The notes under the pieces: generated by a model
Databases searched by the model: none
What the model was told of the DNA's origin: nothing
What the model saw: the letters and a program-made list of their open reading frames with translations, nothing else
Made by a program: the position numbers and the translations under genes
In this document: positions 3,202 through 63,488 of the stretch, piece by piece
How positions within the stretch are numbered: position 1 is the first letter of the stretch
How the letters are laid out: each line of letters begins with the position of its first letter
NCBI GenBank assembly: GCA_016432405.1
Contig: CP066687.1
Coordinates: 515,065-579,064, forward strand
From: Candidatus Giovannonibacteria bacterium
GTDB lineage: Bacteria; Patescibacteriota; Minisyncoccia; UBA11713; 2-01-FULL-45-33
Reading direction: 5' to 3'
DNA: 64,000 nucleotides

Positions 3202-6200
3202 TTATAGTATTCTACGCAACCACTCTCCGGTGTATGATTTTTTGTGGGAGGCGATCTCTTTCGGGGCGCCTTCGGCGACCACCTCCCCGCCGTTGCCGCC
3301 GCCGTCCGGACCGAGGTCAATTATCCAGTCGGCGTTTTTTAAGACGTCCAAATTATGTTCAACAACCAAGACGCTGTTGCCTTTATCCACCAGTGCGGAG
3401 AGAATATTTAAAAGTTTTTGGATATCGTCAAAATGGAGGCCAGTTGTCGGCTCGTCTAAAATATAAAGAGTTCGCCCCGTGGCTTTTTTGGAAAGCTCAA
3501 ACGCGAGCTTCACTCTCTGCGCCTCGCCGCCCGAAAGCGTCGTCGCCGGCTGGCCCAGCTTCATGTATCCCAAGCCAACCTCAACGAGAGTTTTCAGGCG
3601 CTGGTCAATTTGCGGAATGTCTTTAAAAAACTTATGCGCCTCTTCTATTGATAAATCCAAAACATCGGCGATATTTTTATTTTGATACAAAATTTCCAGC
3701 GCTTCTTTATTGTACCGCTTGCCGTGGCATTCCTCGCATTCCACGTAAATATCCGGCAAAAAATACATCTCTATTTTTTTAACCCCCTGCCCTTCGCAAA
3801 CCTCGCATCTCCCGCCTTTGACATTGAAGGAGAAGCGTCCCGATTTGTATCCACGGGCGCGCGCCTCAATAGTCCGCGCGTAAATTTCGCGTATAAACGA
3901 AAACACTCCGGTGTAAGTCGCGGGGTTGGAGCGCGGCGTGCGTCCGATGGGTGACTGGTCCACCAACACCGCCTTATCAATATTTTCCAAACCCTCAATT
4001 TTTTTATGCTTGCCCGGCTCTTCTTTTGAGCCGTAAAAATATTTCAAAAGCGCCTTTGCCAAAATGTCGGAGATGAGCGAGGATTTCCCCGACCCCGAAA
4101 CTCCGGAGACGGCGACCAGCTTGCCCAAAGGAATCTTTACGTCAATATTTTTAAGATTGTGCTCGGAAGCGCCTTTGATGGTCAACTTATCCGCACTTGC
4201 CTTGGCGCTAGGTTTTGCAAGGACACGCATATTCGCCTGCTGGCGAATTGCTCTGCTCGCCCCGTCGGTCTGCGCAAGGTCTTGCAAAACCTGCGCCTTC
4301 GGCTCGCTTTTCACTTCTTTTCTGCCAGACAAATATTCCCCAGTCAAAGTTCTCGCGCGTAAAAGTTCTTTATAAGTTCCTTCAAAAATAACTTGGCCGC
4401 CGCGCTTGCCGGCGCCTGGACCCAAATCAATTATCCAATCGGCTTCCTTCATCGTCTCGGCATCGTGCTCCACAACTAATACGGTATTCCCCAAATCGCG
4501 CAAATCTTTCAGCGTTTTAATCAGCCGCGCATGGTCTCTTGCATGGAGCCCGATTGACGGCTCGTCTAAAACGTAAATCACTCCCGTCAAGGCCGAGCCG
4601 ATCTGAGTCGCAAGCCGCACCCTCTGCGCTTCGCCACCTGCCAGCGTCGTGGACTCGCGGTCTATGGTCAGGTAATCCAAACCCACCTCCAACAAAAATT
4701 CCAGCCGCCGCAAAATTTCTCTAAGCAACGGACGCAAAGCGCCACCTCCCCCAACCCCCTCCTTCGTAAGGAGGGGAATAAAAAAATTTCTTGCATCCGA
4801 AATAGTAAGAGCGGAAATCTCGGCAATATTTTTGTCGGCGTAGGTTACGGCCAGCGCTTCCGGCTTAAGCCGCCTGCCCTTGCAGACGGGGCATTGCTCC
4901 ACGCGCATGTATTTTTCTATTTCTTCTCTAGTCCATTCCGATTCCGTTTCTTTCCACCTGCGTTTCAAGTTTTCGATTACTCCTTCGAAACCGCCCGGCT
5001 CCTCGAAACCGGGTTTTGGGACTGCCAAAAAACCCGGTTTCTTCCCGCCGGGCGGTGTTGAGGAGCGAGGCGAATCACCATACAAAATTATTTTCTTTAT
5101 TTTCTCCGGCAATTTCGCGTAAGGCGTGTTTAGAGAAAATCCGTGCCTCTCCGCCAAATCAGATAAAATCCACCAATACCAGGATTGCCGCCCGACTTTG
5201 TGCGAAGCCGTTGCCCATGCCCTGATAGCTCCTTCCGCCAGTGTCAAATTTTTATTTGGGATAACCAAATCCGGCTCAACCTCCAAGGTGCTTCCCAAAC
5301 CGGTGCAATGCGGACAGGCGCCGTAGGGAGAATTGAAAGAAAAAAGGCGCGGTTCAATCTCCGGCAAAGAAACGCCGCAATCCGGGCAGGCAAAGTGCTC
5401 GGAAAAAAGCTGGTCATTTACCCCCACACCAAAATCTTTGGTGTGGGGGTTTATCAATACCAGCCCTTTCCCAATCTTCAGCGCCGTCTCCAAGGACTCG
5501 CGGAGTCGCGGCCTGTCAAGCTCCTTGTCAATGACTAATCTGTCCACCACCACTTCAATATTATGGGCTTGTTTAGGATTCAATCCGCCAGCCGGCGGAT
5601 TTTCCGCTTCGTCCAAGCGCATTATTTCTCCGTCCATCCTCACTCGCAAAAATCCTCCGCGGCGAACCATTTCCAAAATGCTTTTGTGCTCGCCTTTTTT
5701 GCCTCTGACCACGGGCGCGAAAATATCTATCCGCGAGCCGTTCTTTAACCCGCCTGCGCGGGCAGGTTTCAAAATGTGATTTAAAATTTCGTCCGCGCTC
5801 TGCCTGCCTATTTTTTTGCCGCATTTCGGACAGTGCGGCTCACCGGCACGCGCGAATAAAATACGGAGGTAATCGTAAACTTCCGTAATTGTGCCGACGG
5901 TTGAGCGCGGATTTTTTGCCACGCTTTTCTGGTCAATGGCGATGGCCGGCGAAAGGCCGGAGATGGAATCGGCTTCCGGCTTTTCTTTAACGCCCAAAAA
6001 TTGCCGCGCGTAGGAAGAAAGCGACTCCACAAACCGCCTTTCGGCTTCGGCGTAAATAGTGTCAAAAGCCAGAGATGATTTTCCGGAGCCGGAAAGCCCG
6101 GTGATAACCACGAGTTTATTTTTCGGAATATCCAAATCAATATTTTTAAGGTTATGCACCCTCGCTCCCCTAATCCTTATAAAATTTTTGCCGCTCTCTC

Positions 6201-8465: not shown

Positions 8466-10052
8466 ATGCGGGCTGAAATTCTTGTGCTCATTGTGCTCGC
8501 GCTCATAGCGCTGGTGTCGTTTCTGGGCATACTTACTGAAATAAATAAAAAATTCGGGGTGGAAACTCCGGCTTTCGGAGGGACGCTGCGCGAAGGCGTT
8601 GTCGGGAGCCCGCGATTTATGAATCCGCTTCTCGCGCAATCGGACGCCGACCGCGACTTGGTTTCCCTGCTATATTCTGACCTCCTGCGCCACGACGGCG
8701 AGGGTAAGCCCAAGCCGGCGCTTGCGGAAAAATACGAAGTTTCCCCGGATGGACGGGAATACACGGTGACATTGAAAGACAAACTCTACTGGTCGGACGG
8801 CGAAAAGCTCACCGCGGACGACGTAATTTTCACAATCAGCATGGCGAAGAATCCGCTTGTACAGAGCATCCGCCGCGCCAACTGGGAAGGAGTTGAAGTT
8901 GAAAAAATAGACGAGCGCAGGGTCCGCTTCCGCCTCAACAAGGCCTACGCGCCGTTTTTGGAAAATTTGACGCTTGGTATTTTGCCGAAACACGTCTGGG
9001 AAAAAATCCCGGCGTCACAGATATCTTTGGCGGAGCTCAACACAAACCCCGTGGGAGCCGGGCCATACAAAATAAAGTCAGTTGATAAGGACTCTCGCGG
9101 CTCAATAGTTTCCGCAACGCTTACCGCAAATAGATATTTCGCTTTGGGCAAACCGCACATCAAAACCGTTTTTTTGAAATTTTATCCCGACGAAGATTCC
9201 GCGCTCAAAGGCCTGGAAAGCGGCGCGATAGACGCTTACGGCGCGATATCTCCGAAAAATATAGATAAGCTGGGGAGCAGGACGAAAGTTGAGGATATTT
9301 CGCTGGAACGCGTAATCGCCGTTTTTTTAAACCAGGGGGCCAAAAAAGAGTTCGCCTCCGCAGATGTCCGCAAGGCGCTTAACGCCGCGGTGGATAAAAA
9401 GGCGCTTTTGGACAGAGGGCTTTGGGGACGCGGGAAAATAATCGACGGGCCGCTTCCGGAAGCAGCGGAAAATAATTTATACGACCCGGATGCGGCGAGG
9501 AGCATTGTTAGTAAAAGTAAAAAAGAAATCAGCTTCACGCTTACAACGGCGAGGACAGCGGAACTTCTGGAGATTGCGGAAATCTTAAAAAACATGTGGA
9601 ACGAAGCCGGCTTTAAAGTTGAAGTAAAAAATTTCCCCGTAGGCGACCTTGAGCAAAGCGTAATCGGACCCAGAAGATACGACGCTTTTCTTTACGGCGA
9701 GGAGCTTGTCGGCAAAAACCCCGACCCCTTCGCTTTTTGGCATTCCAGCCAAAGGAACCATCCGGGATACAACATTGCGCTTTACGCCAATTCCCGCGTG
9801 GATAAGCTTTTGGAAGACGTCCGTGTTGAGCAAAGCGAAGAAAAGCGCGCCGAGCTTTATAAAAACATCCAGCGCGAGATAAAACGCGACCAGCCGGCGG
9901 TATTCCTTTTCTCTCCTTCCTATCTTTACGCAGTTCCGCGCGTTCTGGGCGGGATAGAAATAAAAAGCGTGAATACCGGTTCAGACCGGTATGACACGAT
10001 TCATAATTGGTATTTAGAAAGAATGTATGTTTGGAAAATATTTATTAAATAG
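8466..10052 (+). CDS. ABC transporter substrate-binding protein, family 5 (OppA/DppA-like), N-terminal membrane anchor
   Basis: 528 aa. N-terminal TM, and a body matching solute-binding family 5 layout (EKYEVSPDGREYTVTLKDKLYWSDGEKLTADDV...). Confidence 0.85.
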   Translation: MRAEILVLIVLALIALVSFLGILTEINKKFGVETPAFGGTLREGVVGSPRFMNPLLAQSDADRDLVSLLYSDLLRHDGEGKPKPALAEKYEVSPDGREYTVTLKDKLYWSDGEKLTADDVIFTISMAKNPLVQSIRRANWEGVEVEKIDERRVRFRLNKAYAPFLENLTLGILPKHVWEKIPASQISLAELNTNPVGAGPYKIKSVDKDSRGSIVSATLTANRYFALGKPHIKTVFLKFYPDEDSALKGLESGAIDAYGAISPKNIDKLGSRTKVEDISLERVIAVFLNQGAKKEFASADVRKALNAAVDKKALLDRGLWGRGKIIDGPLPEAAENNLYDPDAARSIVSKSKKEISFTLTTARTAELLEIAEILKNMWNEAGFKVEVKNFPVGDLEQSVIGPRRYDAFLYGEELVGKNPDPFAFWHSSQRNHPGYNIALYANSRVDKLLEDVRVEQSEEKRAELYKNIQREIKRDQPAVFLFSPSYLYAVPRVLGGIEIKSVNTGSDRYDTIHNWYLERMYVWKIFIK

Positions 10053-37972: not shown

Positions 37973-38297
37973 GGTTTTCCGCTGATAATCAATTTATCGA
38001 CCTTGTTAACTATTCTGAAATTTACAAACTAAACTTTTTATAATTCCGAAACCCATATTCATTTTTCAAGGTTCTCTTTTCCAGAAGTAAGTCGTTTAGC
38101 TTCTGGCACCCTGCCGCCAAATCTTAACGTGGTAGCAAGATGCCATAAGCCAAGAAACTCTCCGCCACGGAGCGGGTTTTTTAGCCCTATTTTAACCTAA
38201 TCCCTTATTGCGGTTTTATTCGTATTCATCCCGCGTAATTTAAGTATAACATAGCCGATAATCACCGATGCAAGCGCCCGTTGTGGATAACCCTTTT

Positions 38298-52030: not shown

Positions 52031-54339
52031 CGCCCTTTCACTGGCGGCTCGCTTCTTTTCTCCGGAGCGGGGCCTGCTATGCCGGCGAGCGCAGCTTTTT
52101 TGGCGCGTAGGTTGGACAAAATCTGCTTAACCTCGCCGTTGTCCGGGTTGAGCGCCAGAATTTTTTCAAATTCTGAAACCGCCTCCGCCCTCCTCCCGCC
52201 GCGGTCGTAAATCAGCCCCAAAAAGTACCGGGCGTTGGAATAATTCGCGTTAATTTCAACCGCGCGCCCGAAAACTATCTCCGCGTCGCTTAAGCGATTG
52301 GCTCGGTAATACAAAAGCCCGAGCTGAAAAAGCGTTCCGATATCGTTGGGCGCCAAAAGCGCCGCCGCCTCTCCTCTTTTTATGGCCTCCGCGGCCTGGC
52401 CTTCCGCGTCGTAAACCTGCGCCAAAAGGAAATGGCCTTCAACATAGTCGGGTTTTAAAGAAACCGCCTTCAGCAAATTCTCTTCGGCTTTTTTCAAAGA
52501 GTCGCGATTGTTACGCATAGCGGCGTCGCTAAGATAGACCACGGCTTTGTCTCTCCAAAGAAGCGGATTTGAGGGCGCGCGCTTCAGCGCCTCGTCGTAT
52601 TGCGCCTGGGCCGCCTCCATTCCGCCGGCGGCGCCCAACTGGACCAAAAAGGAGTAAATCTGCCCAAGCGCGCGGTAATTCAAAAAGTCCTGCGGCTCCG
52701 CCTTTTCGGCGGCTTGCGCCGCCGAAACCGCGCGGTCAAGAAAATCTTTAAAGCGCGACCCAAGAATGTCCGGGGGCGTTGCCCTGTCCTGCAGCAAAAG
52801 CTGGCCCTTAGACATATAGACCTGCGAGAGCGTGCGGAGGTAAAGATCATTGGCGCCGTCGGTTTGCGCCGCAATCAATATTTTTCTCTCCGCTTCGTCC
52901 AAATTTCCGGCGTTTATCGCCTCCAGCCCCTTGGCGTAAGCAAGCTGGCCGACATAGCGGACCGAAACCAAGTAAAGCCCTAATGCGCCCAGGATTATAA
53001 AAAAGACGACAACAAGCGCCGAAATAAATCCTCTCGGCCCTTCTTCTTTAACCAAAGAAAATTCGTAAATTTTAAACGCCCCGGAGATGCGCAGCGCCGC
53101 CAAAAGAAGCCCCATGGCAAAGAATCCCAAGGCCGCCAAAACATACCCCGCAGAGTAAAACATAAACATCAAAATCGCCAAGGAAAAAAGCAGGAACGCC
53201 GCGAAAACCAAGGTCTCCGCGCGCGAATCATGCGCGGAAGCAAGCGCCTTCAAACCCAGATACCAAAGCCAGCCAAAAAACGCGAGCAGCAAAGCCCATC
53301 CCAAAACGCCCGTCTCTCCAAGCGCGCTCAAAATATAAGAGGACCCGAGAGTAAAGCGCAGCCCCCAAAACAAAGTGTTATTGACTTCGGCCGGCTTGTA
53401 TTTATCCCAAAGGTAGCCGAAGGACGCCGGGCCGGTTCCAAAAACGGTGTTTTCTTTAAGCGCTTTCCCCGCAACCTGCAAAGTGGCGCTGTGGGAAACT
53501 CCGACTTCCAAGGGCGCCGGGAAAGCAATTGAGGAAGCGATGAGCGCCGTAAATAAAAAAGCAAAAAGCGCGACCAAAAGAAGCGCCAAAGGAAACCCGA
53601 CTCCGGCGAGCGAAGTATTTTTGCGCCAGATGCCGTAGCTCAAAAGCAAAATCGCAAAAAATCCGATAATGCCCCAAAGCACCGGGAAATTAACCACCAG
53701 TACCAAAAGCAAAGAAAGTAAAAACAGCGCCGCCATAACCCACCTCGCCGCGCCGGACGAAACAGATAAAAAAGGATAAAGCAGCATAAGAAAAAACGCC
53801 GCCGTAAATCCAACGCTGTTCCATGAGCCAACGGGATTAAAAGCGCGCGCCGCGAAAAGACCGCCTAAGGATTGGCCGAGCCCGAAAACGGAAAATATCC
53901 ATACCATTGCCAAAAAGACAGTGAGCCCCAAGCCCAGAGCGACCATGAGCCGCGAGAAATGAGCCGGCTCGGAAAAAAGCGTCATTATCATAAAACTCAT
54001 CAAAGAAAAAGTAAGCAGCGCCAAAAAACTGGAGGGCTCGGCGGCAATTCCCCAAAGCGAAGCGCCCGAGCGGGAAATAACCGCCGAAGCCAAAACGGAA
54101 AGCAAAAACGCGCCCCATATTATAAAAACATGATGGTACGGCAGAGAAACGCTGCCCGCTCTTATGGAATGCGCGAGGTATAAAACGAAAGACAAAAACA
54201 CCAAAACCGAGACCATGAGCAGTTTGTTGAATTCAACCGGAGCTATGGTTACGGGCAAAAACCATACCGGCAGTAAAAAAGCGAGCGCCAAGAGGCACCA
54301 CTCTGCCGCTTTGTGTAGAGAATCGCTTGATATAGTCAT
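52027..54339 (-). CDS. O-antigen ligase-like (Wzy_C) membrane protein with C-terminal TPR repeats
   Basis: True start is most likely the ATG at 54339 (MTISSDSLHKAAEW...). The track's longer N-terminal extension (to 54600) overlaps the RNase P RNA and is spurious. Multiple TM helices, then TPR repeats (SDAAMRNNRDSLKKAEENLLKAV...). Confidence 0.8.
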   Translation of the reverse strand: MTISSDSLHKAAEWCLLALAFLLPVWFLPVTIAPVEFNKLLMVSVLVFLSFVLYLAHSIRAGSVSLPYHHVFIIWGAFLLSVLASAVISRSGASLWGIAAEPSSFLALLTFSLMSFMIMTLFSEPAHFSRLMVALGLGLTVFLAMVWIFSVFGLGQSLGGLFAARAFNPVGSWNSVGFTAAFFLMLLYPFLSVSSGAARWVMAALFLLSLLLVLVVNFPVLWGIIGFFAILLLSYGIWRKNTSLAGVGFPLALLLVALFAFLFTALIASSIAFPAPLEVGVSHSATLQVAGKALKENTVFGTGPASFGYLWDKYKPAEVNNTLFWGLRFTLGSSYILSALGETGVLGWALLLAFFGWLWYLGLKALASAHDSRAETLVFAAFLLFSLAILMFMFYSAGYVLAALGFFAMGLLLAALRISGAFKIYEFSLVKEEGPRGFISALVVVFFIILGALGLYLVSVRYVGQLAYAKGLEAINAGNLDEAERKILIAAQTDGANDLYLRTLSQVYMSKGQLLLQDRATPPDILGSRFKDFLDRAVSAAQAAEKAEPQDFLNYRALGQIYSFLVQLGAAGGMEAAQAQYDEALKRAPSNPLLWRDKAVVYLSDAAMRNNRDSLKKAEENLLKAVSLKPDYVEGHFLLAQVYDAEGQAAEAIKRGEAAALLAPNDIGTLFQLGLLYYRANRLSDAEIVFGRAVEINANYSNARYFLGLIYDRGGRRAEAVSEFEKILALNPDNGEVKQILSNLRAKKAALAGIAGPAPEKRSEPPVKGR

Positions 54340-54341
54340 AT

Positions 54342-54378
54342 AGAAGATTATAAAAATAACCCAGCCCCGACGCAAGGT
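54342..54378 (-). terminator. Rho-independent terminator of rnpB
   Basis: Minus strand reads CCCAGCCCCGAC-cttgc-GTCGGGGCTGGG followed by TTATTTTTAT. Confidence 0.7.
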
Positions 54379-54381
54379 CGG

Positions 54382-54882
54382 GGCTGGGGATTTGGATTCT
54401 CCGCTCATAAGCCGAGTTCTGTTTAAATAGCCATCTGTCTGGTCCCGCGATTGCTCTGCGGGATCTAGCGTCCGACTACCGAGGTTAACTCGACGTCGGA
54501 CTTGCACCGGGCCCCGACGTAAAGCCGGGGTCCCGACTTCGCTATCAAAAATTTTAATAGTGCGTCGGGACAAGTGTTTTTCACCGCGCGCTGTCACCAA
54601 CGCGCGCTGTGAGCTTTTACCTCACCTCTTTTCACCCTTGCGCTATCAACGCTTCCGGCTTTAGACCGAAAATGATGACGTCCGCGGTATTGTCTCTGTG
54701 ACACTCTCTCGTCCCGCCGTTGGCGGGAGGTGGCCGTTAGCCACTGCCTCTGCCAAAGTTGCCCGAAGCGCAGCGAGGCCGCAACTTTGAGCATCCCGAC
54801 TTTACGTCGGGATTACCTTAGCGGTGCTCGGACTTTCCTCCCTTCCCAAAGCTTGCGCATTGTGGCGGGCGGCTATCCGGCG
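54382..54882 (-). ncRNA. rnpB: RNase P RNA, bacterial type A (M1 RNA)
   Basis: Minus strand contains GGAGGAAAGTCCGAGC (P4 5' strand/CR-I), AGGGTGAAAAGAGGTGAGGTAAAAGCTCAC (CR-II/III), ACAGAACTCGGCTTA (CR-V, P4 3' strand), and P1 pairing GATTCTTCGC/GCGGAGAATC. Consensus promoter upstream and terminator downstream. Length about 500 nt suggests lineage-specific insertions. Confidence 0.8.
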
Positions 54883-54886
54883 AAGA

Positions 54887-54914
54887 ATCTTCCTACATTA
54901 TAGCAGCGTCCCAA
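54887..54914 (-). promoter_or_regulatory. rnpB promoter
   Basis: Minus strand reads TTGCAA (54909-54914), 16 nt, TATAAT (54887-54892). The transcription start coincides with the P1 5' strand. Confidence 0.65.
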
Positions 54915-54928
54915 AAAATTGCAAGCAT

Positions 54929-57900
54929 CTAAAAAGCGTCTGCCGGGGACTTGTCGGTTGTGTTTCCGCTGAAAGTCGCGCCAGTCGCCTGAATCGTTGA
55001 GTTGGAAGAAGAAACCCCCAGGAAGTTATCGGAAAACGAAACTGTGTTCAAAACCACTCCGGCGTTGGCGGCAACCAGCGCCGTTGAATTGCTCGCGGGC
55101 GAGGCGTGGTTATTAAATTCAAAATTGGTGAGCGTTGAGGTCGCGTGGTCGTAAAGCCGCATTCCGGCCTTGTAATTATTCTCAATCCGCCCGTCCGACA
55201 AACTGACGCTCCCGCCAAAAACTCCGATGCCCGCTATGGCGTTAGGGTTGCCTCCCGCGCCATATCCGCCGTAGCGCAAAGTGAACCCGCCGCCATACAT
55301 ATATCCGCCGGAATTTACCACAATGCCGTACCACTCGCCGGGCGCCGTGTCCGCCAAAGAAGTGAAAACGATACTGCTTTTGCTCGCGCCTTCAAGTTTT
55401 AACGCGCCGTTTACGGTGAGCCGCGAAGAGCTGTCCTCGCCGGCAAACCGCGCGCCCGCTTCCAAAACCAAACCCGCTCCGGCGGAAATTTCGGCATTTG
55501 ACGAAGAAATTGTTAGGTAAGCCAGAGAATTAGAAGCGAGCGTCGTCGTCCCGCCCGCTGCAGAAATCGTCCCCAAAAGCGCTATGCCGTTTTTGCCGTT
55601 GCCCGCGCCGGAATTCCCAGAAAAAGTGCTGGAGCCGTTTGATGAATACAAAGCGTAAGAAATATTATTGTTAAAAATATTATTCGCGTAAGACGCGGCC
55701 GCCCCTTCCGCCTTTGCTCCAAAATAATTTTCCGAAAACGTGTTTCCGGAAACGGTCGGCGCTCCGCCCACGACGTAAAACCCGACGTTATCCGCCGTCG
55801 TCGTGCCCACAGAGAAGGTATTGTTCTGAATTGTGGAGTTAGAAGTCGTCAATCTTGCTCCCGCCGAAAAAGAATTTTCAAAAATTGAATTGGAAATGGT
55901 TATGGAGTTGTCAATAACGCTCAAAAGCGCTCTGCGTTCCTGCGGGATATTGCTGGCAAACCCGCCGCCGTATTTAAAACGGGTATGGCTTACGCTGGAA
56001 TTCTGGCTGCTGGAGGTAATCCGCACGTTTCTCCAGCTGCCCGCCGCGGGAGAGCCCGACAAAGCGGTAAATAAAATATTGTTTGCCGCAGTGCCGTCTG
56101 ATTTTAGAGTGCCGTCCACAATCAAATCAGCCGAGTCGCCCATCTTCACCGTAACTCCCGGCTCAATCGTCAAAGTTTTGCCGCTCGCGATTGTCAGAGT
56201 TTCGTTGTCTTTTATAATGTAGGTTCCGAAAGATTGTTTTAACGTTTTGTCGGAAGATAAAGTCGCGCCCTGCGAAATTAAATAATGAAGTGAGTTGCGC
56301 GCCCGCGGAGTCGCAGTAAGCGCCGCGCCCGCCGAATCCAAGCCGTTTTTCACAACGCCGTTTGATGTCCCCCAGTTCCCCGTGTCCGTCCCCACGGCTT
56401 CCATATCAATTCTTTCCATTGATGAATAAGTCGGCGAGGCAAGTCCTCCGCACCAAGCGTTGGAGCAAAGAACAGTTTGGTCAATCGTCGTTGATGCGCG
56501 GGATAAAACCAAAGTTTCTCCGCCGTTCCCAAGACCGGAGCCCGCACCCGAGCCGGAAAAAGGCGCAGTGAGGTCGGCGGTCACGTCGCTTACGGTGTCA
56601 TTATCCGTCCTTTCTATTAAATAATATCCTCCGGCGGAAATTGTTCCCGAAAGATTAATATACGGAACGCCGTCGCCCGCGTATAAAACCCAATTCGCGA
56701 TACTCACGCTTTTTGAACTTCTATTATAAAGCTCAATCCACTCGTCGGCGCTGTTCGCAGAAGTTCCCGCCCAGGCGATTTCATTTATGACAACAGGGCG
56801 AGTGAAAAACACGACCGTCTTAGTCGTTTGCGCGCTCTCGTTGCCGGCATTGTCCACCGCTTTTGCTTTGAAAATATAAGTGGAATCGTCCGCGGGCAAA
56901 GAATAAATTGTGGAAGTCGCCGTGGTGCTCGCAAAATTAAATCCGTCGCAACTTACACCTCCCACTTCACACCTCACATCGTAATGATTCAGGTCGCCCG
57001 CGGCGCTGGACCAGGAAACAGTGGCGGTTGAGCTTGCCACAAGGCATTCGCCGGCAACGGAAGCCAGCCCGGGGCATTCCGAAACGTCCAAAGAAATATC
57101 CGGAGCGGTTGTGTCGGAAGCCGGAGTTTCCGCAGGCGGCGTCGGCGTGCCTCCGCCAAAGCCGGGAGAACCGCCTCCGCCCGCCGCCTGCAACTGCAAA
57201 AAAGGCGGTAAATCCTCATTCGGGGACTTAGTTTCCAAGTTGGCTGCTTCACTTGGTTGTTGGACAACCAAATTGGTTACGCCGCCCGGCGAGAGAACAC
57301 TGCCCGACTCCTCGAAACCTGGTTTTGAGACTTCCAAAAAACCAGGTTTCTTCCCGTCGGGCAGTTTTAAGAAGTCGGGCGGCTCACTTGGCGGTGAAAC
57401 CGCCAAGTGGGGCTCAAATGCGCTTTGAGGAATCTCTTCAACCAACGGCTTCGGCTCTTCTTTATTATTTAAACCGACCGCGCCGCTAACTTGCGACGGA
57501 AGCAAACTCGCCACCCTGTCAAAAATCGTTTTATTTTTCGCCAACAATCTTTTGTTCTCTCTCTCCTCCTCAACCGCCTCAAAAAACAATCTCACCACCC
57601 CAACCCCATGCAAAACCGCTTGTTTGGAAAGATGAGACCAGTAGTCATTCATTACATAAGTATTATCGTCAAATTTAGTTATAAATTTTGAGTTATCTCC
57701 TTTCAGAGTCTCTAATTTAACCAAACGCAATTTCTTGCTATCAAGTTCTCCGTATGCAAAGTAATATTGAACCCCATCAATATGTTCTACACTGATACTC
57801 TTGATAATTGGATTAAAATACTCTTTTGATTTTTCTGGCGTTGTATCCTTGCTAAAAAAATTATTATTAGAATAAGTCGCCATTGAATCAAAATATTCCC

Positions 57901-58540
57901 CAAGAGAAGAAAAACGCGCCGGTTGCGAACCACTATGATATATCATAGTGGATAAACCGGCCATGGTTTCCGCATTCCATTTACTCGCCCAGTGTTCATA
58001 GGGGCTTGCCTGATGAAAAAGCTTATCGGCATAAGGCGGGTGCGCATCGTTTCTGGTATGGTCGGGCACGGACATATCTTCAATCAAATGCAAAATGTGC
58101 CCCAAGCCGTCCAGCCCGCGCGATTTGTCCACCCAGACATAATCATAAACCGCGCGGTCCCAAGAATAATCTGTAGGCGCTCCGAAAACCCCGGTGATTG
58201 CCCCGGCCAATGGCCGGAAAACGCTCGCCTGCGCCAAAGTGTTCTGGGCCCAGTCCTTCGCGGAAAGCTGTCCAAACAAACCGCGGTTATAAACAGGGTC
58301 ATAAAAATGATGCAGCGCCCTTGCTCCGTTGTCTTCTCCGACGCTCCCTATCTCCACCGCGCTTCCATCAACCTCGCCCATTTTAAGATTCGGATAATAA
58401 GAGTTAAATGCTTTGACAATTTCTTGCGTCAGCGCCCTATGTGTTGTTTCCGGCGAGTATGCCAGTGTAAAAAATGGGGACAGCGCCAGCGTCCCCATGA
58501 TTAGAATTTTCCAAATTTTCAGAGTTCTAAAATTTTCCAT
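54929..58540 (-). CDS. Giant secreted protein: zinc-dependent phospholipase C / S1-P1 nuclease-like domain, lamin-tail domain (LTD), right-handed parallel beta-helix repeats
   Basis: 1203 aa. Signal peptide, then HHFYDP and HLIEDMSVPDH motifs (PLC/P1-nuclease zinc ligands), LTD signature INEIAWAGT...DEWIELYN, PbH1-like NNTFS/GNTFSEN repeats. Contains an in-frame family 1 element. Confidence 0.85.
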   Translation of the reverse strand: MENFRTLKIWKILIMGTLALSPFFTLAYSPETTHRALTQEIVKAFNSYYPNLKMGEVDGSAVEIGSVGEDNGARALHHFYDPVYNRGLFGQLSAKDWAQNTLAQASVFRPLAGAITGVFGAPTDYSWDRAVYDYVWVDKSRGLDGLGHILHLIEDMSVPDHTRNDAHPPYADKLFHQASPYEHWASKWNAETMAGLSTMIYHSGSQPARFSSLGEYFDSMATYSNNNFFSKDTTPEKSKEYFNPIIKSISVEHIDGVQYYFAYGELDSKKLRLVKLETLKGDNSKFITKFDDNTYVMNDYWSHLSKQAVLHGVGVVRLFFEAVEEERENKRLLAKNKTIFDRVASLLPSQVSGAVGLNNKEEPKPLVEEIPQSAFEPHLAVSPPSEPPDFLKLPDGKKPGFLEVSKPGFEESGSVLSPGGVTNLVVQQPSEAANLETKSPNEDLPPFLQLQAAGGGGSPGFGGGTPTPPAETPASDTTAPDISLDVSECPGLASVAGECLVASSTATVSWSSAAGDLNHYDVRCEVGGVSCDGFNFASTTATSTIYSLPADDSTYIFKAKAVDNAGNESAQTTKTVVFFTRPVVINEIAWAGTSANSADEWIELYNRSSKSVSIANWVLYAGDGVPYINLSGTISAGGYYLIERTDNDTVSDVTADLTAPFSGSGAGSGLGNGGETLVLSRASTTIDQTVLCSNAWCGGLASPTYSSMERIDMEAVGTDTGNWGTSNGVVKNGLDSAGAALTATPRARNSLHYLISQGATLSSDKTLKQSFGTYIIKDNETLTIASGKTLTIEPGVTVKMGDSADLIVDGTLKSDGTAANNILFTALSGSPAAGSWRNVRITSSSQNSSVSHTRFKYGGGFASNIPQERRALLSVIDNSITISNSIFENSFSAGARLTTSNSTIQNNTFSVGTTTADNVGFYVVGGAPTVSGNTFSENYFGAKAEGAAASYANNIFNNNISYALYSSNGSSTFSGNSGAGNGKNGIALLGTISAAGGTTTLASNSLAYLTISSSNAEISAGAGLVLEAGARFAGEDSSSRLTVNGALKLEGASKSSIVFTSLADTAPGEWYGIVVNSGGYMYGGGFTLRYGGYGAGGNPNAIAGIGVFGGSVSLSDGRIENNYKAGMRLYDHATSTLTNFEFNNHASPASNSTALVAANAGVVLNTVSFSDNFLGVSSSNSTIQATGATFSGNTTDKSPADAF
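57282..57382. repeat. Family 1 nested palindromic mini-element in-frame in the giant secreted-protein gene
   Basis: CCGCCCGGC...CTCGAAACCTGGTTTTGAGACTTCCAAAAAACCAGGTTTC...GTCGGGCGG. Encodes LPDGKKPGFLEVSKPGFEESGSV. Confidence 0.75.
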
Positions 58541-59061
58541 AAACCAGTGGGAAAATGCCCTAACCTGATAGTGTTGGTAATATTACCAGCCGGGACATTA
58601 AATTTTTGTCCTTGTAATTCTACAATACCACCATCGGAATAAATTGTGTACTCAAAAATCGCTATTTTATCACTAGATTCTTTTAGATTTTGTTGTGCAT
58701 TCTCAAAATCTTTTAGAAAATTTGATGTCCTATTATTTATTTGCATTTCTTTTAGATCTATAGTGGCTTTTTCTTGTTCCTCAATCACAAAATACTTCGC
58801 CGCCAAATCTGTGTCCCCCTTTTTCAGAGCGTCAATAAAAAGCGCCAGTGTTTCTTCCGGCGTTTTGCCGCCGTAGGTATCCTCTTCATAAAGTTTTTTC
58901 AGCGCCTCGTATTCGTTTTGCGCTTTCTTCGCGTTCCACCAATCGCGGAGCGCCCCTGAATTATCGTAAATCCCGGCGCCATAAACCGCCAAAAATCCCA
59001 GCGCCAAAATCCCCAGCATCCCCGCGAAAAATTTCCAAAAATGCTTGTTTAATGAACTCAT
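58519..59061 (-). CDS. Hypothetical membrane-anchored protein
   Basis: 180 aa, N-terminal TM, no family recognised. Confidence 0.55.
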   Translation of the reverse strand: MSSLNKHFWKFFAGMLGILALGFLAVYGAGIYDNSGALRDWWNAKKAQNEYEALKKLYEEDTYGGKTPEETLALFIDALKKGDTDLAAKYFVIEEQEKATIDLKEMQINNRTSNFLKDFENAQQNLKESSDKIAIFEYTIYSDGGIVELQGQKFNVPAGNITNTIRLGHFPTGLWKILEL

Positions 59062-59183
59062 AACTCAAAAATAACTCACAAAGCCTAGCCAGTCAACATT
59101 AGTTTTCATCTACTAATTTTAGCATAAAACCCTGCCCCGTTAATTTTCTCGCCTCTCCGCCGAACACCGCAATTTCACTTTTT

Positions 59184-59999
59184 TTATTTCTTTTTACTCT
59201 TTTTTAATCTTTTTTCTATTTTCCTTAATCTTGCTTCAAGTTTTTTAAAATTTTCGTTAATTAATATTCTAGAATCTCTTATTAAATCTGTTGCTTTAAT
59301 TTCTTTAATCATACTTTCTTTAGACAAATTAGCTATATTTTTCATTGTAGTTTCAAGATTATTAATAATTTTTTCTCCAAGTATAGTAACTTTTTTAGAA
59401 TCATTATGCAGTTCATTAAATTTCCGATACTTATGAAGGGCTTTATGAGTTATGTCGTTGCGCATAGAATTAAAGTTTTCTAAATCGCTCACCAACATGC
59501 TGTCATTTAAAAAAACGCTTAAAAAATGTATAAGTTTGCCCAGTGTCTCTTTTTGTAATTTTTTACTGGAAAGTTTTATCCAAATCTTTGTTTCAAATAA
59601 ATGGCTGTTGGAAATACAATCGAGATTTATGATGGACTGTATAAATATCAATAAAGATATTACGTTATATGAGATTAAATTTTCTTGTAATACCAGTCTT
59701 GCATAATTCGATTTCTCCTCTCTGAGATACTTTAGAAAATCTTCACGGAATCTCTCCCTCTCATCTAGATCACTAACAATCTTTTTAACTAAATGTTCTC
59801 TTTCTTTTTGCCAAAATAGGCCGTTTTCTATTTTGTTGCCATCCTCATCTTTGATAAGGCCGCCTAGTTTATCATAATGAGCCAAAATCTTTTCTGGCGT
59901 AGCATTTTCTCCAGCATCCTTTTTAGCCCTATCGTATTTATCGCTATTATTATTGAGCGTGTATTCTCGTCCCCGAACTTTGATTTTTATTTCTTGCAT
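59184..59999 (-). CDS. Abi_2-family (AbiD/AbiF-like) abortive-infection protein with HEPN R-x4-H motif
   Basis: From the ATG at 59999 with SD AGGAG (the track start 60023 lacks an SD). AT-rich. LRNDITH fits the R-x4-6-H HEPN motif conserved in AbiD/AbiF. Driven by promoter module copy B. Confidence 0.6.
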   Translation of the reverse strand: MQEIKIKVRGREYTLNNNSDKYDRAKKDAGENATPEKILAHYDKLGGLIKDEDGNKIENGLFWQKEREHLVKKIVSDLDERERFREDFLKYLREEKSNYARLVLQENLISYNVISLLIFIQSIINLDCISNSHLFETKIWIKLSSKKLQKETLGKLIHFLSVFLNDSMLVSDLENFNSMRNDITHKALHKYRKFNELHNDSKKVTILGEKIINNLETTMKNIANLSKESMIKEIKATDLIRDSRILINENFKKLEARLRKIEKRLKKSKKK

Positions 60000-60025
60000 A
60001 ATGTCTCCTAGTTTTTTGAACAAAC

Positions 60026-60086
60026 TTATTAATCCCCTAAATCTTAGCGGATTTTGGGTTTTTATTCAAGCAGTTTTCGGTTTTTT
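60026..60086 (-). promoter_or_regulatory. Conserved promoter module, copy B
   Basis: Minus strand reads TTGAAT (60064-60069), 17 nt, TAAGAT (60041-60046), then TTAGGGGATTAATAA. Paralogous to 31657-31717. Confidence 0.55.
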
Positions 60087-60284
60087 GCGCGGCACGCCGC
60101 AATGCTCGGCAATAATTGGAGCGTCAATCCAAAAAATGATTTCTAAATAAGCATCCGCCATCTTAGAGGCGATTTGTTCCATTGTGCCGTCGTCAACCTC
60201 CGAAACGTCAAAACCTATCCCTTCTAAATCTTCCCGGCAAATAGATGTAATAGGAAACTGTTTAAATTTTTTATTATTGGCCAT
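60066..60284 (-). CDS. Hypothetical small protein (island gene)
   Basis: 72 aa. Its 3' end overlaps promoter module B. Confidence 0.4.
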   Translation of the reverse strand: MANNKKFKQFPITSICREDLEGIGFDVSEVDDGTMEQIASKMADAYLEIIFWIDAPIIAEHCGVPRKKPKTA

Positions 60285-60298
60285 ACTAATAAAATTTA

Positions 60299-60508
60299 TT
60301 ATTTAAGCGCATTTTTGATTTTAGCGAGGATTTCCGTACCACATCGGAAGCAAAAATTTTTAAGTTTTAGGCCTATTACATTAACCTTTTCGACGCGTTC
60401 TGGATAATATATTTCACCTTTTCGAATTTCACCGCCGCATGTATTACAAAAATGAGAAACCCTTGCTTTTGTTTCCTTTAGAATTTTTAAATTATTATAT
60501 TTGCTCAC
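60299..60508 (-). CDS. Small zinc-ribbon protein
   Basis: 69 aa, CNTCGG...CFRCG (two CxxC pairs). Confidence 0.45.
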   Translation of the reverse strand: MSKYNNLKILKETKARVSHFCNTCGGEIRKGEIYYPERVEKVNVIGLKLKNFCFRCGTEILAKIKNALK

Positions 60509-60517
60509 GCTATCAAA

Positions 60518-60751
60518 CTAGCTTAAGTATTTTCGCGGATCATTTTTATATGTCCACTCATTCTGGATTTCGCCATTCAAGCCGTGAATTTTCACTTGGC
60601 TTGGTTGCATAGACTTAGCCAATGCTACAGCCGTTCTAACAGCGTCTGCTTTTTTAGGAGTAGAGATGACGGGGAAGCTGACGCCAGCTTGCTTCACGAG
60701 CCAGTTTTCAGAAGTATTGTTGTGCACAACATGTAAAACTTTTCTTGCCAT
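60518..60751 (-). CDS. DUF2188-family small protein
   Basis: 77 aa. VHVVHN...W.VKQ.G...P.S.TKKADAV.TA.ALAK...I.HG.NG.I..E.TY..DP pattern typical of DUF2188. Confidence 0.55.
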   Translation of the reverse strand: MARKVLHVVHNNTSENWLVKQAGVSFPVISTPKKADAVRTAVALAKSMQPSQVKIHGLNGEIQNEWTYKNDPRKYLS

Positions 60752-60868
60752 GGTATTAGGATTTTAGATTAATAATCTCGACCATTTTCAATTATAATAC
60801 CAAACTACCGAAAATAAACCGAAAGTTATCCACAGGCCAATAGCAACCGCTTGGTATAAAATAAATAT

Positions 60869-62392
60869 ATGCTCACCCCTCGTCAAAAACAGGTACTGGA
60901 TTTTGTAAGCTCCTACACCAAAAAGCGGGGTTTTGCGCCCTCCATTAAAGAAATGGGGCAAAGGATTGGCTTGGCCATATCTACAATTCATCAGCATTTA
61001 ACGGCGCTGCAAAATAAGGGTTATCTGCAACGACAAAAAAATCAAAAAAGAGGCATTGAAGTATCTTCATCAGAGAAGCTAGTAAAAATTCCTTTATGGG
61101 GAACAATAGCCGCAGGCGAACCAATCCATGTATTTGAAGCACATAAAGAAGCCATTGCTGTCCCAAAAAGTAAAATCCCCTCTTCATCGGAGGTCTACGC
61201 CCTCCGCGTTGTGGGCAACAGCATGATTGATGAAAATATAAACGACGGAGACGTCGTTTTGGTGCGCCAGCAAGAAACTGCCGAGAATGGAGAAAGGGTA
61301 GTGGCTCTCATTGATAATCACGAAGCAACCTTAAAGAAATTTTATAAAGAGCGCGGACATATTCGCTTACAACCGGCAAACAAAAACATGGAGCCGCTTA
61401 TTTTCAGAAATGGGAGGGATGTTTCAATACAAGGAATTGTACTTGATGTTATCCGTGAAGAAACACCAATATCTATTGTCTTTCCAGAAATTAAGACGGA
61501 AATCAAACAATATAAAAAACTTCCTATTAACAAAATAATTTTAGGAGATGCGATGCAAGAATTAAAGAAACTTCCTGATGAAAGTTGTGATGTTATCGTT
61601 ATTGATCCCCCATACAATATCGGGAAAGATTTTGGAAATAATCTTGATAAGCGAGAACTGAGCGAATATGTTGCGTGGTGTAAAAAATGGATAAATGAAT
61701 GCGTTAGAGCAATGAAACCAACTGGAACAATGTTTATTTATGGTTTTAGCGAAATTTTAGCCCATCTTTCTGTTGAAATTCCTATAAATAAACGCTGGCT
61801 TATTTGGCATTATACAAACAAAAACGTTGCCTCACTCAATTTTTGGCAGAGAAGTCATGAAGCAATTATCTGTGCATGGAAAAACAAACCAATTTTCAAT
61901 AGAGACGAAGTTAGAGAGCCCTACACGGAGGGGTTTTTGAATGGGGCCGCAGGAAAAATAAGAAAGGGCACATTAGGGAGATTTAGTGGGAGCGGTGTAG
62001 AAACTGTTTACAAAGCCCATGAGGGCGGCGCGTTGCCGCGAGATGTCATCAAAGCTCCTGCCCTGGCTGGAGGAGCCGGAATGGTAGAAAGATGGTTTTT
62101 GTGCAAAACGTGCGATGATGTTTTTGAACCGCGACAATTGAAAAAACACAATGGACACAAAATAATTAAACATCCCACGCAAAAGCCCCTTGAATTATCA
62201 AAAAAATTGATCGCATCAGCTATGCCTAAAAAGGATGGCGTTGTCTTAGTGCCATTTGTCGGTACTGGTTCGGAGTGCGTAGCGGCAAAAGAGTTAGGCC
62301 AATCGTATATTGGATTTGAAATCAATCAAGATTATATAAAAATTGCTGAAAAATTTTTGAGCTCCACTAACTTTGCGCCAAAATTATTTTAA
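60869..62392 (+). CDS. LexA-like repressor (wHTH plus S24 peptidase) translationally fused to a beta-class N6-adenine (DPPY) DNA methyltransferase
   Basis: Continuous 507 aa ORF. Residues 1 to about 200 form a complete LexA: LTPRQKQVLDF wHTH, Ala-Gly cleavage site IAAGEPI, catalytic Ser in VVGNSM and Lys in ATLKKF. Residues about 225-507 form an MTase with motif IV DPPY then motif I FVGTGS (beta-class order). Confidence 0.8.
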   Translation: MLTPRQKQVLDFVSSYTKKRGFAPSIKEMGQRIGLAISTIHQHLTALQNKGYLQRQKNQKRGIEVSSSEKLVKIPLWGTIAAGEPIHVFEAHKEAIAVPKSKIPSSSEVYALRVVGNSMIDENINDGDVVLVRQQETAENGERVVALIDNHEATLKKFYKERGHIRLQPANKNMEPLIFRNGRDVSIQGIVLDVIREETPISIVFPEIKTEIKQYKKLPINKIILGDAMQELKKLPDESCDVIVIDPPYNIGKDFGNNLDKRELSEYVAWCKKWINECVRAMKPTGTMFIYGFSEILAHLSVEIPINKRWLIWHYTNKNVASLNFWQRSHEAIICAWKNKPIFNRDEVREPYTEGFLNGAAGKIRKGTLGRFSGSGVETVYKAHEGGALPRDVIKAPALAGGAGMVERWFLCKTCDDVFEPRQLKKHNGHKIIKHPTQKPLELSKKLIASAMPKKDGVVLVPFVGTGSECVAAKELGQSYIGFEINQDYIKIAEKFLSSTNFAPKLF

Positions 62393-62408
62393 ATAATTTT
62401 ATATAAAA

Positions 62409-63077
62409 TCAGCTATCGCTTTTTAAATAATTAATAAGTCCTTTCCCCAATTCTTTAATAGATATAGAAATATTAATTAATTTTTCATCCTTAGAAAAAT
62501 AATTGAGTGGGATTAAATACCATAATTGATCAGACATTTTAAATACTATTTTAGCAGCAAGGCCCAAACCTTGTTTTAACTCATAGCCTGTTTTTGTTTT
62601 TTTCCAGTTGTTTTTGTTAAGCATTTTAGTTGGAGCCAGTTTGATGGCTGGGGTTTTAATAACATTATAGATTATGCGTTGATGCTCTTTATCTAATTCT
62701 CGCGCGCATATTAAATAAAAGTCGAAATTATTGTGTTGAGCTTTTATAAAAGCTAGTTTCTTTTCTAATGAGCTAAATGTGGTTAAACGATAAGACGATA
62801 GCGTAAGAAAATTATTTTTTATAACGCTACCCTTGGCAGAAATTTTTAGAATAGAACCATTAATTTTTGCCTTAATATCAACACTTTTTTCATGCGATTG
62901 AGAATTCCATACAACTTTATCGTCTCCATAGAGAAAGACAAGGGCAGCCCATATAAGTTCTTCCCAACTTGTATCTTTAATTGGAAGTGTTGTTGTACTA
63001 GATTTAAATTTTATTAGTTTCTCAATAGTACTTGAGAATTTTGTCTCATTAAAACTCATATAATCAAATTCTCCCAC
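62409..63077 (-). CDS. Putative type II restriction endonuclease (partner of the methyltransferase)
   Basis: 222 aa AT-rich ORF convergent with, and 16 nt from, the MTase gene. Possible D...D-x-K core (GDD...VDIK). Alternative ATG start at 63059 with SD GGGAG. Function inferred from context only. Confidence 0.45.
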   Translation of the reverse strand: MGEFDYMSFNETKFSSTIEKLIKFKSSTTTLPIKDTSWEELIWAALVFLYGDDKVVWNSQSHEKSVDIKAKINGSILKISAKGSVIKNNFLTLSSYRLTTFSSLEKKLAFIKAQHNNFDFYLICARELDKEHQRIIYNVIKTPAIKLAPTKMLNKNNWKKTKTGYELKQGLGLAAKIVFKMSDQLWYLIPLNYFSKDEKLINISISIKELGKGLINYLKSDS

Positions 63078-63116
63078 AAAATCATTTATTTATCAAACCA
63101 AACCCCGCCTCCCTAT

Positions 63117-63144
63117 CTATTCTCTTATTCTCACGAATTAGCCG
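63117..63144. promoter_or_regulatory. Operator-like repeat upstream of the putative REase gene
   Basis: CTATTCTCTTATTCTCACGAATTAGCCG. 27 of 28 identical to 63444-63471 upstream of the ArsR-family gene. Confidence 0.5.
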
Positions 63145-63153
63145 GAGTATAAT

Positions 63154-63426
63154 TTATAAAATAGACAAAATATATTTTGCCGCGTGCCGAAGCGCGCCGA
63201 GGCGGTAAAAAACCTGAAGGCTTCTTTGGTCACGTTCCAAAATATCAGCTGCAGCGAGCACCGACAAGTGCCGGGAAGTTGATTTAAACGACAAACGAAT
63301 TTCTTCGGCAATGTCCCCAACCGGCGCCTCCTTAACCTTTTTTAAATACCGCAAAATTTGCAGCCGTCTTTTATTGGCCAGCGCTTTTAACGCCTTTTCC
63401 AGCTCTTTTTCATTCATAGTAAACAT
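63154..63426 (-). CDS. ArsR/SmtB-family transcriptional regulator (candidate controller of the R-M system)
   Basis: 90 aa. HTH VGDIAEEIRLSFKSTSRHLSVLAAADIL, typical ArsR length. Confidence 0.75.
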   Translation of the reverse strand: MFTMNEKELEKALKALANKRRLQILRYLKKVKEAPVGDIAEEIRLSFKSTSRHLSVLAAADILERDQRSLQVFYRLGALRHAAKYILSIL

Positions 63427-63443
63427 ACTAGCATATCCCCCAA

Positions 63444-63488
63444 CTATTCTCTAATTCTCACGAATTAGCCGATAGAGAATAGAGAATT
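63444..63488. promoter_or_regulatory. Operator-like repeat plus inverted partner upstream of the ArsR-family gene
   Basis: CTATTCTCTAATTCTCACGAATTAGCCG followed by ATAGAGAATAGAGAAT (inverted partner of ATTCTCTAATTCTC). Confidence 0.5.

Follow-up and report, generated by a model that had tools for sequence, protein, structure and literature searches.

The DNA analysed here is a stretch of 64,000 nucleotides (nt) from Candidatus Giovannonibacteria bacterium (assembly GCA_016432405.1, contig CP066687.1, positions 515,065-579,064 of the forward strand), which is called the window in the following and numbered from its first letter. It contains a gene in which a LexA repressor is joined in frame to a DNA methyltransferase (MTase). 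The gene consists of a single unbroken open reading frame (ORF) of 507 amino acids (aa) and is followed by a convergent gene for a putative restriction endonuclease (REase), upstream of which a small regulator of the ArsR type is encoded on the same strand (Table 1).

Pfam searches with the 507 aa protein assigned residues 2-62 to LexA_DNA_bind (PF01726, 1.2e-18), residues 75-191 to Peptidase_S24 (PF00717, 6.5e-31) and residues 241-495 to N6_N4_Mtase (PF01555, 1.2e-38; 133.7 bits against a gathering score of 26.7). In NCBIfam the protein was recognised as a LexA equivalog (TIGR00498, 199 bits, cutoff 110.95). Moreover, residues 2-197 aligned to solved LexA structures (3k2z, 1jhh and others) and the remainder to those of the beta-class MTases M.MboIIA, M.RsrI and CcrM. 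The scissile Ala82-Gly83 is found in the sequence GTIAAGEP between the DNA-binding and the catalytic domain, and both the S24 nucleophile Ser118 (in GNSM) and the general base Lys156 (in TLKKF) are present. The C-terminal MTase of about 290-300 aa sets the fusion apart from the two-domain LexA of about 200 aa. Here DPPY (motif IV, residues 246-249) precedes FVGTGS (motif I, residues 463-468), which is the order of the beta class, and both motifs are kept in the MTase cluster of the window protein. In an AlphaFold model the linker had a predicted local distance difference test score (pLDDT) below 50 at residues 198-215; only this disordered linker was used from the model, as the whole fusion was modelled poorly (pLDDT 59) because the alignment was shallow in diversity. 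The junction motif KLPINKIILGD (residues 217-227; consensus KLPxNxIxxGD) is common to several MTase clusters.

Table 1. Features of the LexA-MTase locus in the window. L044 is the related locus of Parcubacteria GW2011_GWC1_45_13, which was compared with the window by blastn; wHTH, winged helix-turn-helix.
Feature	Position	Strand	Basis
Predicted sigma-70-type promoter TTAATA-N18-TATAAT	60769..60798	+	10/12 consensus; best site in 60400-63600
Candidate operator of the LexA head, TTTCGGT-TTAT-TTTCGGT, two direct repeats with 11-bp period	60807..60824	-	Only match with at most 2 mismatches in 64 kb
DnaA-box-like decamer TGTGGATAAC (TTATCCACA on the plus strand), abutting the candidate operator	60825..60834	-	Exact copies, conservation
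LexA-MTase fusion gene	60869..62392	+	ORF, Pfam, NCBIfam, homologues
LexA wHTH, residues 2-62, recognition helix ...AISTIHQHL...	60872..61054	+	PF01726, LexA structures
S24 catalytic and dimerisation domain, residues 75-191; Ser118 61220-61222, Lys156 61334-61336	61091..61441	+	Pfam
Ala82-Gly83 self-cleavage site	61112..61117	+	Read from sequence; invariant in homologues
Linker (residues 199-217, predicted disordered) and KLPINKIILGD	61463..61549	+	pLDDT; nt homology to L044 stops at 61549
Exchangeable beta-class N6-adenine MTase body; DPPY 61604-61615, FVGTGS 62255-62272	61550..62392	+	Pfam, structures, L044 comparison
Convergent putative REase, 222 aa, PD-(D/E)XK fold, unannotated family; true start probably ATG 63059	62409..63077	-	Fold search, model
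ArsR/SmtB-type wHTH regulator, upstream of and co-directional with the REase	63154..63426	-	NF033788 63.5 bits vs cutoff 55; Pfam

An earlier interpretation made from the letters alone (the sequence-only reading) had described one uninterrupted ORF of 507 aa with a complete LexA, including the Ala-Gly site and the Ser/Lys dyad, a beta-class DPPY MTase with motif IV ahead of motif I, and a convergent REase beside an ArsR-type regulator. All of this was borne out, for the three domains of the fusion by significant family matches and for the neighbours by the fold search, NF033788 and Pfam. The reading had also proposed that cleavage physically frees the MTase body, which has to be corrected: a cut at Ala82-Gly83 would shed only the wHTH of about 82 aa, since the S24 domain stays covalently joined to the MTase and only the DNA-binding head is detached. 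We are highly confident of the structural and regulatory description of the gene as a LexA-headed MTase.

Occurrence in Patescibacteria and exchange of cassettes

A search of 5.8 billion proteins revealed more than 120 distinct clusters at 90% identity that share the three-domain architecture of about 507 aa and are 71-78% identical to the window protein. The corresponding metagenome-assembled genomes (MAGs) are named Liptonbacteria, Falkowbacteria, Jorgensenbacteria, Nealsonbacteria, Gribaldobacteria and Parcubacteria. At the level of DNA, 84 related loci were examined, comprising 80 kept of 196 found when a single genome of each GTDB species was scanned and four fetched separately, and in all 84 the ORF matching LexA also carries an MTase. 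The database search for like fusions that the sequence-only reading had suggested thus uncovered a very large family in Patescibacteria. The reading had regarded an S24 repressor module on a methylase as unusual; the architecture is real, but it is not a one-off.

The LexA head alone was also compared exhaustively by HMMER with 1.84 billion cluster representatives. Among the 60 closest matches (at least 47% identity), about 40 were proteins of 390-890 aa with LexA at residues 1-198, and below 47% identity the matches were ordinary LexAs of about 200 aa. The share of fused forms is overestimated in this set by the clustering at 50%, and a word-indexed search for LexA relatives is biased to short or truncated entries. 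Standalone LexAs of the same clade were found as well, on long contigs. All 43 long representatives contain LexA_DNA_bind and S24, and their C-terminal parts belong to N6_N4_Mtase (30), to gamma-class enzymes of the Eco57I/N6_Mtase/TaqI_C/MmeI type (about 7), to the D12/Dam type (5) and to C5 DNA_methylase (2). LexA heads are fused to every DNA MTase class (alpha, beta, gamma and C5) across the clade. The Ala-Gly pair, the serine and the lysine are invariant in 78 of 78 heads of the related loci and in 43 of 43 distant representatives. This invariance suggests that the cleavage machinery is under selection, and the head is probably RecA-cleavable.

We also considered that the fusion could be an artefact in which two genes are united by a sequencing error, by an overlooked stop codon or frameshift, or by chimeric assembly. 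The GC content, which falls from 0.43 in the head to 0.25 in the linker and is 0.39 in the MTase, would fit such an origin. It is excluded by the same full-length architecture in more than 120 clusters and 84 of 84 loci. Hundreds of assemblies, made independently in different projects, contain an identical in-frame junction, and a conserved junction motif is common to different MTase clusters; the probability of an artefact is negligible.

Among 72,556 plasmid records none covered at least 80% of the fusion, and one contig of IMG/VR carries it. In phages the fused form was not found, and only an unfused pair of neighbouring genes was seen in Marinitoga phage MPV1. No description of a natural LexA-MTase fusion or of LexA-controlled restriction-modification (R-M) in the Candidate Phyla Radiation (CPR) was found in the searchable full-text literature, although Sanchez-Osuna et al. 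2017 (Environ Microbiol 19:3465), on the SOS response of Patescibacteria, may mention such fusions. The same proteins are named only 'LexA' by NCBI and only 'DNA methyltransferase' by the Joint Genome Institute. Nine loci (L010, L011, L012, L024, L032, L036, L054, L061 and L065) contain CPR-type fusions deposited under the non-CPR names Gammaproteobacteria, Ignavibacteria, Melioribacter, Bacteroidetes, Hyphomicrobiales and Legionellaceae; mistakes in binning or labelling are the probable cause, and not a true occurrence outside CPR.

Several variants of the architecture were observed. In L042 (6001-7170) and L043 (3497-4726), natural plain HTH-MTase derivatives of 389-409 aa, the wHTH (residues 1-65) is joined directly to the same MTase without S24. 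An ORF of 1129 aa in L020 (6001-9390) comprises LexA, a beta MTase of the window type and a second, M.TaqI-like gamma MTase (N6_Mtase/Eco57I and TaqI_C), and the protein P0423 combines LexA with a C5 MTase and an Eco57I-like segment.

The two halves of the fusion are decoupled in their evolution. Within the MTase cluster of the window the MTase halves are 70-100% identical (mean 80%) and the LexA halves 45-98% (mean 66%), and in many pairs of loci LexAs of at least 90% identity are joined to MTases of 20-45%. The comparison with L044, where the LexA head is 93.5% identical and the MTase about 30%, resolved the borders of such an exchange. The left flank (window 52530-54926, L044 4-2370) is 68-96% identical at the nt level, the lexA head with the linker up to codon 227 (60857-61549, L044 5989-6681) 85% and the ArsR-like gene (63064-63487, L044 8311-8790) 80%. 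No homology was detected between 61550-63063 of the window and 6682-8310 of L044, i.e. in the MTase body and the nuclease. The left border (61549/61550) coincides with the end of KLPINKIILGD and the right one (63063/63064) is located 5 nt from the probable start codon of the nuclease. With syntenic flanks and homology missing only at 61550-63063, exactly the MTase body and the nuclease were therefore exchanged for a different pair. Between the syntenic left flank and lexA, positions 54929-60856 of the window and 2363-5988 of L044 also bear no resemblance to each other. This segment of the window holds an ORF of 1203 aa (54929-58540), an AT-rich ORF of 279 aa without a Pfam match (59184-60023) and small ORFs with a zinc ribbon and DUF2188.

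In other pairs of loci the homology runs from a DnaA-like box through head and linker, halts, and resumes 140-320 bp past the nuclease at a gene for a controller (C) protein, and the sequence outside this frame is unrelated. The heads are 97% identical as protein but only 80-88% as DNA, which indicates strong purifying selection. These comparisons suggest that the lexA head and the small regulator, ArsR-like or C, act together as a conserved docking frame that takes up M-R cassettes by recombination at KLPxNxIxxGD; we slightly favour this view as part of the full functional reading given below. The sequence-only reading had placed the gene in an AT-rich island. The GC content is indeed low in the MTase and the nuclease (0.39 and 0.30 against 0.48 in the whole window), but the island is not one acquired block, as the head and the ArsR-like gene (0.44) belong to the frame and only 61550-63063 was exchanged.

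No flanking inverted repeats were detected within 56000-64000 of the window. L081 contains a perfect inverted repeat of 296 nt (4762-5057 and 8760-9055) which brackets an extra ORF, the LexA-MTase, the REase and the C gene, and an imperfect one in L075 (2317-2633 and 7268-7598) brackets the corresponding unit. These repeats suggest an invertible or mobile element.

Upstream region and candidate operator

The upstream region follows a layout that is shared among the 84 loci, with a DnaA-box-like sequence TGTGGATAA(C), two adjoining direct repeats of 11-bp period and then a TATAAT box. The DnaA-like 9-mer was present exactly in 65 of the 84 loci and with at most one mismatch in 77, compared with 0.2% and 4% in shuffled sequences, and it forms the precise left border of the homology between loci. 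In the window, TGTGGATAAC matches the DnaA-box consensus (TTATCCACA) and occurs in three exact copies where about 0.1 would be expected. The other two (31729-31738, minus strand; 38282-38291, plus strand) are located in or beside other AT-rich patches, the former in a promoter-like region before an ORF at 31299-31634 (minus strand). The box could reflect co-regulation by DnaA or serve as a recombination border. The promoter listed in Table 1 is a match to the consensus only, and the number of such sites in the region equals the shuffle expectation. Relative to the predicted transcript the candidate operator lies at about +2 to +20, just downstream of the -10 element, a position that would be suited to repression.

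Across the 84 loci at least five repeat types were distinguished, and both repeat copies change together and with the recognition helix of the wHTH. Helices of the type ...STAHFHV are accompanied by the unit CTTTCTAT or CTTTCGAT, ...STIHQHL and TIHEHL by CTTTCGG(T), ...ST(A/T)HEHL by TGCTCGGG, ...STxHHHL by TTTCGA(A/T)A and ...LVKST(V/I)HQH by GTTCGGTA. The repeat type of the window occurs in all loci with a helix of the STIHQHL/TIHEHL type. The standalone lexA genes of the clade have the same upstream layout. Two MAGs carry two fusions each (L006 and L050 in JACOXY01, L067 and L077 in JASEIC01); within each pair the heads are 55-65% identical, and helices, operators and MTase/REase cassettes differ, which is consistent with independent circuits without cross-talk. 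In PMC7739468, which cites the 2017 paper on the SOS response of Patescibacteria, it is stated that LexA evolved recognition of direct repeats and that Patescibacteria are among such lineages.

No further copies of the operator were detected elsewhere in the 64 kb window, and 652 kb of related loci contained two sites against 1.0 expected. Likewise, no extra operators above chance were found at the promoter of the C and nuclease genes or at neighbouring genes. The own promoter is therefore the only detectable target in the sequence scanned, and a distant regulon is possible. The comparison of loci supports the view that the head would bind the tandem repeat of 11-bp period in its own promoter and thereby repress itself.

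As to the SOS box for which the sequence-only reading had suggested an upstream search, no palindromic SOS box is present there in the window (best score 1.0 bit), and the candidate operator is a direct repeat. A palindrome was rejected as the general operator, as it occurs in about 30 related loci but is absent from the window. In these loci (among them L010, L020, L021 and L039) the sequence TATTATACT-N3-AGTATA (TATACT-N3-AGTATA) overlaps the -10 element about 25 nt before the ATG and is additional to the direct repeats; it scores 12-23 bits compared with 10 for the 99th percentile of the null distribution. The palindrome may serve as a second operator or be bound by another regulator.

Restriction partner, small regulator and probable target

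The convergent ORF of 222 aa had no Pfam match, and its 76 homologues are all annotated as 'hypothetical'. A model built from 46 sequences reached a pLDDT of 93.7, and a fold search with it returned the restriction-endonuclease fold. The invariant residues H61, D66 and K81 (in ISAK) are compatible with a PD...(S/E)xK site. The homologues begin at MSFN, matching the probable start codon given in Table 1.

The MTase bodies of 80 loci form at least nine clusters, and each cluster has its own downstream partner family or families, which are nearly always convergent. These include RE_TaqI, RE_MamI (6e-36), a His-Me/EndoVII nuclease and a MutH/Sau3AI-like nuclease. Of the 68 loci with a convergent partner, 29 encode a small XRE-type protein of typical C-protein sequence immediately before the nuclease and in the same orientation; the window and L044 have the ArsR-type wHTH in this slot and not an XRE-type C protein. 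In the MTase cluster of the window (40 loci) the partners are mostly of the RE_TaqI family, and two other families are represented, including that of the window itself. A relationship of the window nuclease to TaqI (RE_TaqI, PF09573) was rejected, as it had no Pfam match and hhalign gave a probability of 1.4% against the RE_TaqI-type partners; it would be at most an isoschizomer of TaqI from a different family.

TCGA is the most depleted palindromic tetranucleotide of the window, with 41 copies observed against 165 expected in a second-order model (ratio of observed to expected, O/E, 0.25). In the pooled loci the O/E of TCGA was 0.45 with the MTase cluster of the window compared with 0.70-0.77 in four of five other clusters and 0.54 in the remaining one, MT4. 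The depletion is present with all three partner families of the window's cluster (0.40-0.53). The target of the MTase is probably TCGA, because of this depletion, the partners of the RE_TaqI family and the ORF of L020 that joins this MTase type with an M.TaqI-like MTase. The R-M context itself is shown by the adjoining nuclease gene and by the cognate pairing of MTase and nuclease across the homologues. That the gene encodes the MTase of a Type II R-M system is part of the full functional reading, to which we give somewhat more credence than not. GATC ranks second in the window (63 observed, 182 expected, O/E 0.35), followed by GTAC and GGCC (0.66), which hints at further restriction systems acting on the genome.

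Proposed damage feedback and comparison with known systems

R-M systems must balance methylase against nuclease to spare the host, which they are known to achieve by C proteins or by a short HTH head of the methylase. We propose that in the gene described here a complete, cleavage-competent LexA serves as the control head of the methylase gene. Stimulation of LexA cleavage by RecA filaments and the resulting derepression are established LexA biology. Upon DNA damage, RecA filaments would stimulate self-cleavage at Ala82-Gly83, which would part the wHTH (residues 1-82) from the S24-MTase (residues 83-507); the promoter would be derepressed and more MTase be made. The breaks of the system's own nuclease would in this way raise the methylation capacity, a negative feedback that could come into play when methylation lags, when the system arrives in a new host or when cassettes have been swapped. 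The nuclease would be controlled by the ArsR-like protein here and by a C protein elsewhere. The most economical purpose of such a design would be to counter self-restriction by feedback and to let the system establish itself safely once it has been transferred or its cassette exchanged, while the C or ArsR-like protein times the nuclease. This full functional reading of a self-repressing, RecA-cleavable LexA control head in a modular R-M frame with damage feedback appears to us a little more probable than its contrary. It suggests that Patescibacteria tie the protection from their own restriction enzymes to a DNA-damage sensor. More tentative, and as a whole somewhat less likely than not, is the generalisation that the LexA lineage of Patescibacteria was largely co-opted as an R-M control head, that a frame of two regulators (on one side the DnaA-like box and operator with the lexA head and linker, on the other the C or ArsR-like regulator) takes M-R cassettes of any class at KLPxNxIxxGD, and that head cleavage triggered by RecA closes the autoimmunity loop.

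Several observations weigh against the proposed feedback. The operator unit of the window is inverted and located downstream of the -10 element, whereas in most loci the unit lies between the DnaA-like box and the -10 element, and the promoter of the window is rearranged, as the homology to L044 resumes only 12 nt before the lexA ATG. The covariation of helix and repeat is partly confounded by the co-inheritance of head and promoter. Furthermore, in L085 (5001-6412) a standalone lexA is followed 6 nt downstream on the same strand by DpnI, and in L089 (5001-6691) a standalone lexA is overlapped by an ORF of 355 aa on the same strand with weak SfsA-nuclease and wHTH signals. DpnI is methyl-directed and needs no MTase. 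In such operons it is the nuclease that damage would raise, a pattern more in keeping with a defence induced by damage than with a protective feedback. The association of lexA with restriction genes thus reaches beyond the fusions.

The head could instead be the ordinary global SOS repressor of the cell, with R-M cassettes as selfish passengers that recombined into the 3' end of lexA, gained a damage-inducible promoter and became hard to lose, so that the fusion would mean co-expression only. The head scores above the LexA equivalog threshold, the standalone LexAs of the clade have the same promoter architecture, and the heads of the window and of L044 occupy the same place in the chromosome in spite of the exchanged cassette. 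Moreover, tblastn found no second LexA in the 64 kb, in agreement with the sequence-only reading, which had seen no other lexA in the window. Nevertheless, at least five repeat types among closely related heads would hardly be expected if the regulon were large and conserved; some MAGs contain two fusions with different heads and operators, and extra operators were found neither in the window nor, above chance, in the 652 kb of related loci. Lineages of different names also share heads of more than 95% identity between unrelated flanks, which indicates that the head moves too. In addition, the fusion stays in frame for each class of MTase, whereas a stop codon would suffice for co-expression. 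We consider this explanation unlikely.

Cleavage might also act as a damage-triggered shutdown or suicide switch. Degrons would be exposed, the S24-MTase degraded and methylation stopped during phage infection or severe damage, so that phage DNA is restricted or the cell dies, following an abortive-infection logic. This is in line with the invariant cleavage machinery, with a new C-terminus ...IAA that is similar to the end ...VAA of the E. coli LexA N-fragment, which is recognised by ClpXP, and with the standalone lexA-DpnI operons, which imply that the nuclease rises with damage. But cleavage also derepresses the promoter and would yield more new fusion protein, and the known degron logic concerns the N-terminal fragment and not the MTase part. 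Such a switch is quite improbable. Even less probable is a purely structural role without damage sensing, in which S24 would serve for dimerisation and the wHTH would tether the MTase to DNA. CcrM and M.MboIIA, which are beta-class structural matches of the MTase, act as dimers, and wHTH-MTase variants without S24 exist (L042, L043); however, the Ala-Gly pair and the Ser/Lys dyad, unneeded for dimerisation alone, are invariant in all heads, and the partners include gamma and C5 MTases of the monomeric type.

A self-cleaving LexA on the methylase would give the balance of methylase and nuclease a direct input from DNA damage. If the generalisation to the LexA lineage of Patescibacteria is true, the LexA-headed docking frame would be a regulatory principle new to R-M, and LexA would have taken a new evolutionary path. 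The host group represents a huge uncultured part of the bacterial tree and largely depends on R-M for defence. The plug-in exchange of cassettes with borders at the base-pair level is a clean natural example of its kind. Analyses of SOS regulons in CPR should reckon with many LexAs that are fused to R-M methyltransferases. Besides, the heads and their matching tandem-repeat operators resemble an orthogonal set of damage-responsive repressors and are potentially useful as parts.

Similar principles are known from other systems. With LexA (TIGR00498; 3k2z, 1jhh) the fusion shares the wHTH, the Ala-Gly site, the Ser/Lys dyad of S24, the equivalog score and a candidate operator in its own promoter. 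Unlike LexA, it carries an MTase of about 300 aa at the C-terminus and is part of an R-M cassette, the operator specificity of its heads diversifies among close relatives, and no repair-gene targets were found in the available sequence. In Marinitoga phage MPV1 an S24 CI-like repressor (MPV1_56) is followed by a DNA methyltransferase (MPV1_55) on one strand, but these are two genes separated by a gap of 78 nt, the repressor is of the phage CI type in a lysogeny module, and the identity is 25%. CapH/CapP of the cyclic-oligonucleotide-based antiphage signalling system (CBASS) and the WYL-type BrxR/CapW likewise gate immune expression by a damage-responsive repressor, CapP via repressor proteolysis. 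These are unrelated proteins encoded by separate genes that control a whole operon, whereas the fusion unites sensor-repressor and protective enzyme in one polypeptide.

MTases of the M.SsoII/M.EcoRII/M.MspI type also have an N-terminal DNA-binding domain on an R-M methyltransferase, and their heads repress the M promoter and set the M level; for the fusion such self-repression is predicted. Their heads are short HTHs on C5-MTases without protease or signal input and without sequence relation to the LexA head, whereas the head of the fusion is a full self-cleaving LexA that is portable across MTase classes and would add an input from DNA damage. In C-protein R-M systems (PvuII, BamHI, Esp1396I) a small HTH regulator is likewise encoded upstream of and co-directional with the nuclease and convergent with M; in the window the slot is taken by an ArsR-type wHTH, and M is predicted to be under its own LexA head and not under C. 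By analogy, the design would work like an HTH-headed autoregulatory MTase of the M.SsoII type inside an R-M system of the C-protein type, but with a full LexA as the head. Its modules are known, whereas the regulatory logic would be new and the evolution is strikingly modular.

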